Source of the DNA: Trypanosoma brucei
Lineage: Eukaryota
Direction of reading: 5' to 3'
DNA: 64,000 bases
Assembly (NCBI GenBank): GCA_000002445.1
Contig: CP000069.1
Coordinates: forward strand, 192,001-256,000
Positions 14,247 to 15,458 of this stretch are shown here, one piece after another; positions within the stretch are counted from its first letter, which is position 1; each line of letters starts with the position of its first letter. The translations under genes were made by a program, and so were the position numbers. The notes under the pieces were generated by a model. The model was not told where the DNA came from. It did no database searches and worked only from the letters and a program-made list of their open reading frames with translations.

Positions 14247-15458
14247 ATGGAGAAACCGTCTTGCAGGGGTGCCGGTTGGGCGCAGCTTTTGTGGTGTTAC
14301 GGCACCTGTTGCGCTCTACTCCTCCGCCTGATAGTTGAAGCCAGTCAAGCTGCTGAGGGTTTAAAAACCAAAGACGAAGTTGAGAAGGCGTGCCATCTTG
14401 CACAACAACTCAAAGAAGTTTCAATTACTTTGGGAGTTATTTACCGGACCACTGAACGACACTCCGTGCAAGTTGAAGCGCATAAAACAGCCATTGACAA
14501 ACATGCGGATGCGGTGTCGCGAGCTGTGGAGGCGCTCACGAGGGTGGATGTGGCACTTCAGCGATTGAAAGAACTCGGGAAGGCGAATGACACGAAGGCG
14601 GTGAAAATTATCGAGAACATTACCTCCGCCAGAGAAAATCTCGCTCTCTTCAATAACGAAACGCAGGCCGTACTGACGGCGAGGGATCATGTGCATAAGC
14701 ATAGGGCCGCGGCATTGCAGGGGTGGTCTGATGCAAAAGAAAAAGGCGATGCCGCCGCAGAGGATGTTTGGGTTCTGCTTAATGCCGCAAAAAAAGGTAA
14801 TGGCAGTGCAGACGTCAAGGCAGCTGCAGAGAAATGCTCGAGATATTCCTCAAGCAGTACTTCAGAAACTGAGTTGCAGAAAGCTATTGACGCCGCCGCT
14901 AACGTGGGGGGTTTGTCGGCACACAAGTCGAAATATGGCGATGTGCTGAACAAGTTTAAATTGTCTAATGCTTCAGTGGGAGCAGTGAGAGACACATCCG
15001 GCCGGGGCGGTAAGCATATGGAAAAGGTCAATAATGTGGCAAAACTTCTTAAGGATGCAGAGGTTTCTCTTGCAGCTGCAGCAGCCGAAATTGAGGAGGT
15101 TAAAAATGCACATGAAACAAAAGCACAGGAAGAGATGAAGCGCAATGGGAACCCGATCGAAAATGAATCAGAGACTAATTCAGGGGGGAATGCGGAATCA
15201 CAAGGTAATGGAGATCGTGAAGATAAGAACGACGAGCAACAACAGGTCGATGAGGAGGAAACAAAGGTGGAAAATGGAAGCAGCGAGGAGGGGTCTTGTT
15301 GTGGAAACGAAAGTAACGGTCCCCATGTGATGAAAAAACGTCATGGGGTTGAGGGACCAAGGCCCGTTGACGTGGTTAGTGGTTTCCGCAGTTATGCCAG
15401 TGCTTCTTTTGCTCTGCTTTCTCTTGTCCGTGTCGGTATGCTCCAGGTGGTGGTGTAG
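14247..15458 (+). CDS. HpHbR: Haptoglobin-haemoglobin receptor (HpHbR), GPI-anchored three-helix-bundle surface protein
   Basis: The ORF runs 14178..15458. The in-frame ATG at 14247 yields a 403-aa protein with an N-terminal signal peptide ([32 protein letters not shown]), a long Ala/Lys/Glu-rich helical body carrying N-glycosylation sequons, and a C-terminal hydrophobic GPI-addition signal ([26 protein letters not shown]). Length and position (last Pol II gene before the procyclin units, near CatB) fit TbHpHbR. Residue 210 from this Met is Leu, which is the T. b. brucei/rhodesiense state. Confidence 0.75.

Follow-up and report, generated by a model that had tools for sequence, protein, structure and literature searches.

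The window analysed here, 64,000 nucleotides of Trypanosoma brucei DNA, contains a 403-codon open reading frame (ORF) that is followed directly by a procyclin array. This locus raises the questions of which receptor the ORF encodes, which allele of that receptor it carries and whether its position at a boundary between Pol II and Pol I transcription has a bearing on its expression. Protein identity, codon 210, gene order and distances were computed in this analysis, and receptor function, the effect of the L210S substitution and the assignment of transcription to Pol II or Pol I were taken from the literature.

Identity and features of the receptor

The coding sequence occupies positions 14247-15458 of the + strand (403 codons plus a stop, with the ATG at 14247) and corresponds to Tb927.6.440. 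The only Pfam match in the ORF was to PF20933 (HpHbR), which extended over residues 39-292 with E = 1.5e-101 and a score of 339.6 bits, against a curated cut-off of 27 bits; the profile was covered from position 1 to position 243 of 243. A longer version of 426 aa, beginning at an in-frame TTG at 14178, was rejected as an artefact of the bacterial start-codon rule. The published length of the protein is 403 aa (Symula 2012, PMC3393672).

Comparison with protein structures gave a more exact identification. Residues 36-378 were 100% identical to chain E of PDB 4WJG (E = 8.9e-216). Residues 36-299 differed from 4x0j_A by one substitution, A293V, with 4x0j_A having Val293, and residues 38-297 differed from 5hu6_D by two, that chain having Ala189 as well as Val293. 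The 4WJG, 4X0J and 5HU6 chains are all titled haptoglobin-hemoglobin receptor, and the Val293 and Ala189 residues of the latter two are allelic or strain variants of one gene. The preliminary description of this DNA had proposed an HpHbR-type receptor with a helical bundle, to be abandoned if identity to a characterized HpHbR fell below 50%. The proposal is upheld by the Pfam match and by complete identity across the crystallized chain.

Because the protein is identical to solved structures, its three-helical-bundle fold is established, and the elongated form of the ectodomain is given by the identity to crystallized 4wjg_E together with the one-substitution match to 4x0j_A. The three-helical-bundle fold and the GPI anchoring of HpHbR have been reviewed (PMC5268388). 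By the description in that review, the HpHbRs of T. congolense and T. vivax belong to the same family and share the GPI-anchored three-helical bundle. They are ancestral haemoglobin receptors and differ from the T. brucei protein in their ligand, which is haemoglobin rather than haptoglobin-haemoglobin, in their expression on epimastigotes, where the copy number is very high, and in having neither the kink nor the C-terminal extension (PMC5268388).

The N-terminal ligand-binding domain comprises residues 36-299 (14352-15143, + strand), as delimited by crystallography (residues 36-299 in 4x0j_A and 38-297 in 5hu6_D) and by the Pfam match (residues 39-292). It is preceded by a predicted signal peptide region, residues 1-35 (14247-14351, + strand), whose hydrophobic core lies around residues 12-30; the 4wjg_E chain begins at residue 36. 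At the other end of the protein, where 4wjg_E stops at residue 378, residues 379-403 (15381-15455, + strand) form a hydrophobic tail that is presumed to be the GPI-addition signal. In a hydropathy analysis the two most hydrophobic stretches were at about residues 12-30 and 385-403, bracketing the crystallized chain 36-378, and the strongest peak was at 389-403. These hydrophobic ends, as read from the sequence, would fit a cleaved signal peptide and a GPI-addition signal. The comparison of residues 1-35 and 379-403 was with the T. b. gambiense group 1 (Tbg1) allele only. Because published binding and structural studies were made with an identical protein, the product of the ORF is predicted to bind haptoglobin-haemoglobin and TLF-1.

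Gene neighbours and the procyclin array

Gene order in the window is leucine-rich-repeat protein, adenylate cyclase, HpHbR, EP, EP, GPEET, EP and, on the opposite strand, cathepsin B. Upstream of the receptor, every ORF that has a family match lies on the + strand. They include the leucine-rich-repeat protein of 858 aa (3685-6261, + strand; family match) and a GRESAG4-like receptor-type adenylate cyclase of 1,252 aa (8172-11930, + strand), which matched PF25493, PF25495 and PF00211. Downstream of the receptor, none of the ORFs of at least 80 aa within 15459-19008 had a family match above threshold. Additional genes in this intergenic interval were rejected on that ground, and HpHbR is therefore the last recognizable gene before procyclin. 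Its designation in the preliminary description as the last Pol II gene before procyclin agrees with this result, there being no credible gene between the receptor and 19009; the Pol II assignment itself comes from the literature, where HpHbR is reported to close a Pol II unit that precedes procyclin (Horáková 2022; Kieft 2024).

Self-alignment of the window revealed a 23.5-kb block composed of three tandem procyclin units on the + strand, at 17379-24797, 24798-32204 and 32205-40871, with 97-99.6% identity to one another. Unit 1 contains an EP procyclin ORF of 127 aa with an EP dipeptide repeat (19009-19392, + strand). The ORF list places an EP procyclin ORF of 123 aa in unit 2 (26428-26799, + strand) and a GPEET ORF in unit 3 (33837-34181, + strand), the latter followed by an EP procyclin ORF of 129 aa (35115-35504, + strand). 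In every unit the PAG3 position is then taken by a 208-aa ORF and the GRESAG2.1 position, next in order, by a 454-457-aa ORF (starts at 21253, 28660 and 37296, + strand) in which Pfam identifies a VSG_B domain. The third unit is 8.67 kb long, compared with 7.41-7.42 kb for units 1 and 2, and its extra GPEET segment accounts for the excess. The Glu-Pro repeats of the EP genes are of unequal length in the three units. Relatives of VSG expression-site-associated genes are found on both sides of HpHbR, namely the leucine-rich-repeat protein with its ESAG8-like repeats, the GRESAG4-type cyclase and the VSG_B protein (21253-22626 and its copies).

The succession of EP/GPEET repeats, PAG3 and GRESAG2.1 is that of a chromosome VI-type procyclin expression site. 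The published four-gene unit of chromosome VI consists of procyclin, procyclin, PAG3 and GRESAG2.1 (PMC2731899). This layout is shared by the window and is most complete in unit 3 (32205-40871). The window differs from the chromosome VI GPEET/PAG3 site in having three tandem copies, the first two of which carry a single EP gene without GPEET. A 7,402-bp, four-gene repeat in three copies at the procyclin locus of T. b. brucei has been listed among subspecies-specific segmental duplications (Jackson 2010, PMC2854126). Transcription of the procyclin unit by Pol I (alpha-amanitin-resistant) is likewise known from the literature (PMC2731899).

An exact 30-bp direct repeat, TTGAGGGTTGCAGTCTTTTACCGTGCTGGT, lies at every unit boundary on the + strand (17379-17408, 24798-24827, 32205-32234 and 40842-40871). 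The repeat is present in four exact copies, with 0 expected by chance. Unequal crossing-over could have produced the three units from one ancestral unit with this 30-mer on either side. We saw no description of the 30-bp junction repeat in the literature; the triplication itself is published (Jackson 2010).

Pol I terminator elements have been located 2-3 kb downstream of GRESAG2.1 (Haenni 2009). In units 1 and 2 the terminator interval (about 24600-25600 and 32000-33000) crosses the repeat junction into sequence identical to that which begins at 17379. The original downstream sequence, beyond 40871, is kept by the last unit only (compare 40660-41660).

A convergent strand-switch region beyond the last procyclin unit is marked within 40001-46000, where coding passes from the + to the - strand and the sign of the GC skew is reversed. 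After the procyclin block, the earliest clear gene on the minus strand encodes a cathepsin-B-type peptidase (46072-47094, - strand). Farther downstream, the G+C content of 52001-54000 is 0.347, compared with 0.42-0.53 elsewhere, and this stretch is adjoined by a CAF1-family ribonuclease ORF (53592-54668, - strand).

The polymerase boundary and its bearing on expression

The receptor stop (15458) is separated from the start of the repeat block (17379) by 1,920 bp and from the first procyclin ATG (19009) by 3,550 bp. The intervening spacer at 15459-17378 (1,920 bp, + strand) is unique sequence outside the repeat and holds the HpHbR 3' UTR; we infer that it also contains the Pol II termination zone. 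The preliminary description put the receptor about 1.9 kb ahead of a Pol I unit. As a distance to the repeat start this figure is accurate, but position 17379 is a duplication junction and not a promoter.

An estimate of the distance to the promoter was obtained from the repeats. The polypyrimidine tract and 5' UTR of the first EP gene (18950-19008, + strand) are common to internal procyclin genes. From 18950, but not before it, the region preceding the first gene of a unit resembles that of the internal, promoter-less EP gene of unit 3. Promoter-specific sequence must accordingly lie farther upstream, and the Pol I promoter would be expected just upstream of 18950. The procyclin promoter occupies roughly 250 bp before the start site, and the start site is a short distance upstream of the splice acceptor. 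Drawing partly on this general knowledge, we would put the Pol I start at around 18.6-18.9 kb, or ~3.2-3.4 kb from HpHbR. A literature search for the distance from the procyclin transcription start to the ATG returned none, the papers found describing the GPEET promoter template only.

The preliminary description regarded the juxtaposition as a notable polymerase-boundary configuration. The boundary is real, but it had already been published and on present evidence it is not regulatory (Horáková 2022; Kieft 2024). According to a regulatory interpretation, a boundary position effect beside the Pol I procyclin units would drive the shut-off of HpHbR in stumpy and procyclic forms. HpHbR, the last gene before procyclin, is indeed down-regulated early in slender-to-stumpy differentiation (Horáková 2022), and termination that depends on base J and H3.V can control genes lying last in a Pol II unit (Kieft 2024, introduction). 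However, when a ~10-kb luciferase cassette was inserted between HpHbR and procyclin, HpHbR mRNA still fell during differentiation exactly as it does in the wild type (Horáková 2022). HpHbR was picked by Kieft 2024 as the final gene of its unit, with the expectation that TLF selection would yield selective premature termination. What was found was mono-allelic silencing of Pol II initiation that affected the entire HpHbR unit together with its divergent neighbour; the silencing seen under TLF selection acted at the promoter of the unit and not by termination before HpHbR (Kieft 2024). In light of these experiments we consider a boundary position effect very improbable.

Less probable still is a version in which the spacer and the 30-bp repeats constitute a recombination-prone boundary. 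Here the number of procyclin units would vary among strains, as with three units in TREU927 against a single one in DAL972, and either this number or the activity of Pol I at the first promoter, at a distance of 3.4 kb, might have a quantitative effect on Pol II termination and on the HpHbR mRNA level. The luciferase-insertion experiment argues against a simple distance effect on HpHbR (Horáková 2022). The level of HpHbR mRNA is one determinant of TLF sensitivity.

Codon 210 and the source of the DNA

Codon 210 of the ORF (14874-14876, + strand) is TTG, encoding Leu; in Tbg1 it is TCG, encoding Ser. Tbg1 allele z1, from the allele file of Symula 2012, was aligned base by base and ungapped with positions 14247-15520 of the window. 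No gaps were present and 1267 of 1274 nucleotides were identical. The seven differences result in five replacements in allele z1 (L210S, A293V, E369G, G370A and M398I) and two synonymous changes, with L210S arising from a single T-to-C change at 14875. The same five replacements are listed for Tb927.6.440 versus Tbg972.6.120 (Jackson 2010, PMC2854126), and the two sets agree exactly, with no extras.

The PCR primers of Symula 2012, which were designed on Tb927.6.440 and Tbg972.6.120, have perfect matches at 14205 and 15521 and enclose 1,297 bp, the length also given in that study (PMC3393672). Because the 403-aa numbering, the primer matches and the ungapped alignment to allele z1 are in agreement, the Leu is at the true position 210. 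This is where the preliminary description had put it, while allowing that an alignment might assign it elsewhere; the allele z1 alignment assigns L210S to this codon. In the allele file of Symula 2012 the codon 210 context is GAGTTGCAGAAA in 30 sequences and GAGTCGCAGAAA in 3. The PleI site (GAGTC) that was proposed for typing by Symula 2012 is absent from the window, and a change of GAG TTG to GAG TCG at codon 210 would create it.

The window is easily confused with a Tbg1 sequence if codon 210 is not checked, only 7 nt overall separating it from the Tbg1 allele. The Tbg1 receptor (Tbg972.6.120; alleles z1-z3 of Symula 2012) is the same gene, and L210S is the one replacement that is both fixed in Tbg1 and specific to it (PMC3393672, PMC3630162). 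The ORF at 14247-15458, however, has TTG and not the TCG codon for Ser210, it has the T. b. brucei state at all five positions that distinguish Tbg972.6.120, and it is accompanied by three procyclin units, the copy number given for T. b. brucei (Jackson 2010). The likelihood that the gene is a Tbg1 receptor, or a gambiense-like low-affinity allele, is accordingly close to nil.

Leu210 is common to T. b. brucei, T. b. rhodesiense and T. b. gambiense group 2 (PMC3393672, PMC3630162), and HpHbR alleles do not partition these three taxa (Symula 2012, PMC3393672). It follows that the receptor gene alone cannot name the subspecies: Leu210 excludes Tbg1 only. The source had been described as a brucei or rhodesiense-type strain, and Leu210 does fit both; the description is incomplete in that T. 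b. gambiense group 2 also has Leu.

On the receptor allele alone, the locus could be drawn from another Leu210 member, whether T. b. rhodesiense, T. b. gambiense group 2, T. evansi or a different T. b. brucei strain, since Leu210 is found in all taxa except Tbg1 and the alleles of T. b. brucei, T. b. rhodesiense and T. b. gambiense group 2 do not separate. We nevertheless judge such an origin unlikely, as the window has precisely the five published Tb927.6.440 differences from gambiense and no extras. Moreover, 4wjg_E is identical to it, whereas 4x0j_A and 5hu6_D depart from it at one and two positions, and both the 3 x 7.4-kb arrangement and the EP, EP, GPEET, EP order match the TREU927 annotation. 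In that annotation the gene numbers run from.440 (HpHbR) through.450 (procyclin PARP A),.480 (EP3-2 procyclin precursor) and.510 (GPEET procyclin) to.520 (EP3-2 procyclin), the order observed in the window. No difference from Tb927.6.440 was detected, the shared features being the 403-aa length, Leu210, Ala293, Glu369, Gly370, Met398 and the final-gene position before procyclin.

TREU927 chromosome 6 is the most probable source on the joint evidence of gene order, the five replacements and the triplicated 7.4-kb unit. The ORF is almost certainly single-copy TbHpHbR (Tb927.6.440), most probably of T. b. brucei TREU927 chromosome 6, encoding a GPI-anchored receptor; it ends a short Pol II unit, after which come a 1.9-kb spacer and three Pol I procyclin units. 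The gene, its structure, the Leu/Ser210 polymorphism, the last-gene position and the triplicated procyclin unit are all already published.

The functional meaning of Leu210 can be judged from substitutions at this position. [quoted passage not shown] Given Leu210 in the window and this restoration by S210L, the encoded receptor is predicted to be competent for high-affinity ligand and TLF-1 uptake. Leu210 is located in the hydrophobic core of the membrane-distal head and represents the wild-type state, with high-affinity binding of ligand and TLF-1. The expectation of a strain susceptible to TLF uptake is retained to the extent that uptake competence is predicted from Leu210, but susceptibility to killing is not predicted by this residue. 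Killing by TLF, unlike uptake, depends also on SRA and TgsGP. Neither SRA nor TgsGP was seen within the window.

In practical terms, these results serve only to assign the window to chromosome 6 of T. brucei, to exclude gambiense group 1 and to indicate TREU927 as the most likely strain. In bloodstream forms HpHbR serves for the uptake of host haptoglobin-haemoglobin as a source of haem, and the same receptor also provides the entry route of human TLF-1. The L210S replacement at the codon that is TTG here is one adaptation making T. b. gambiense group 1 infective to humans.
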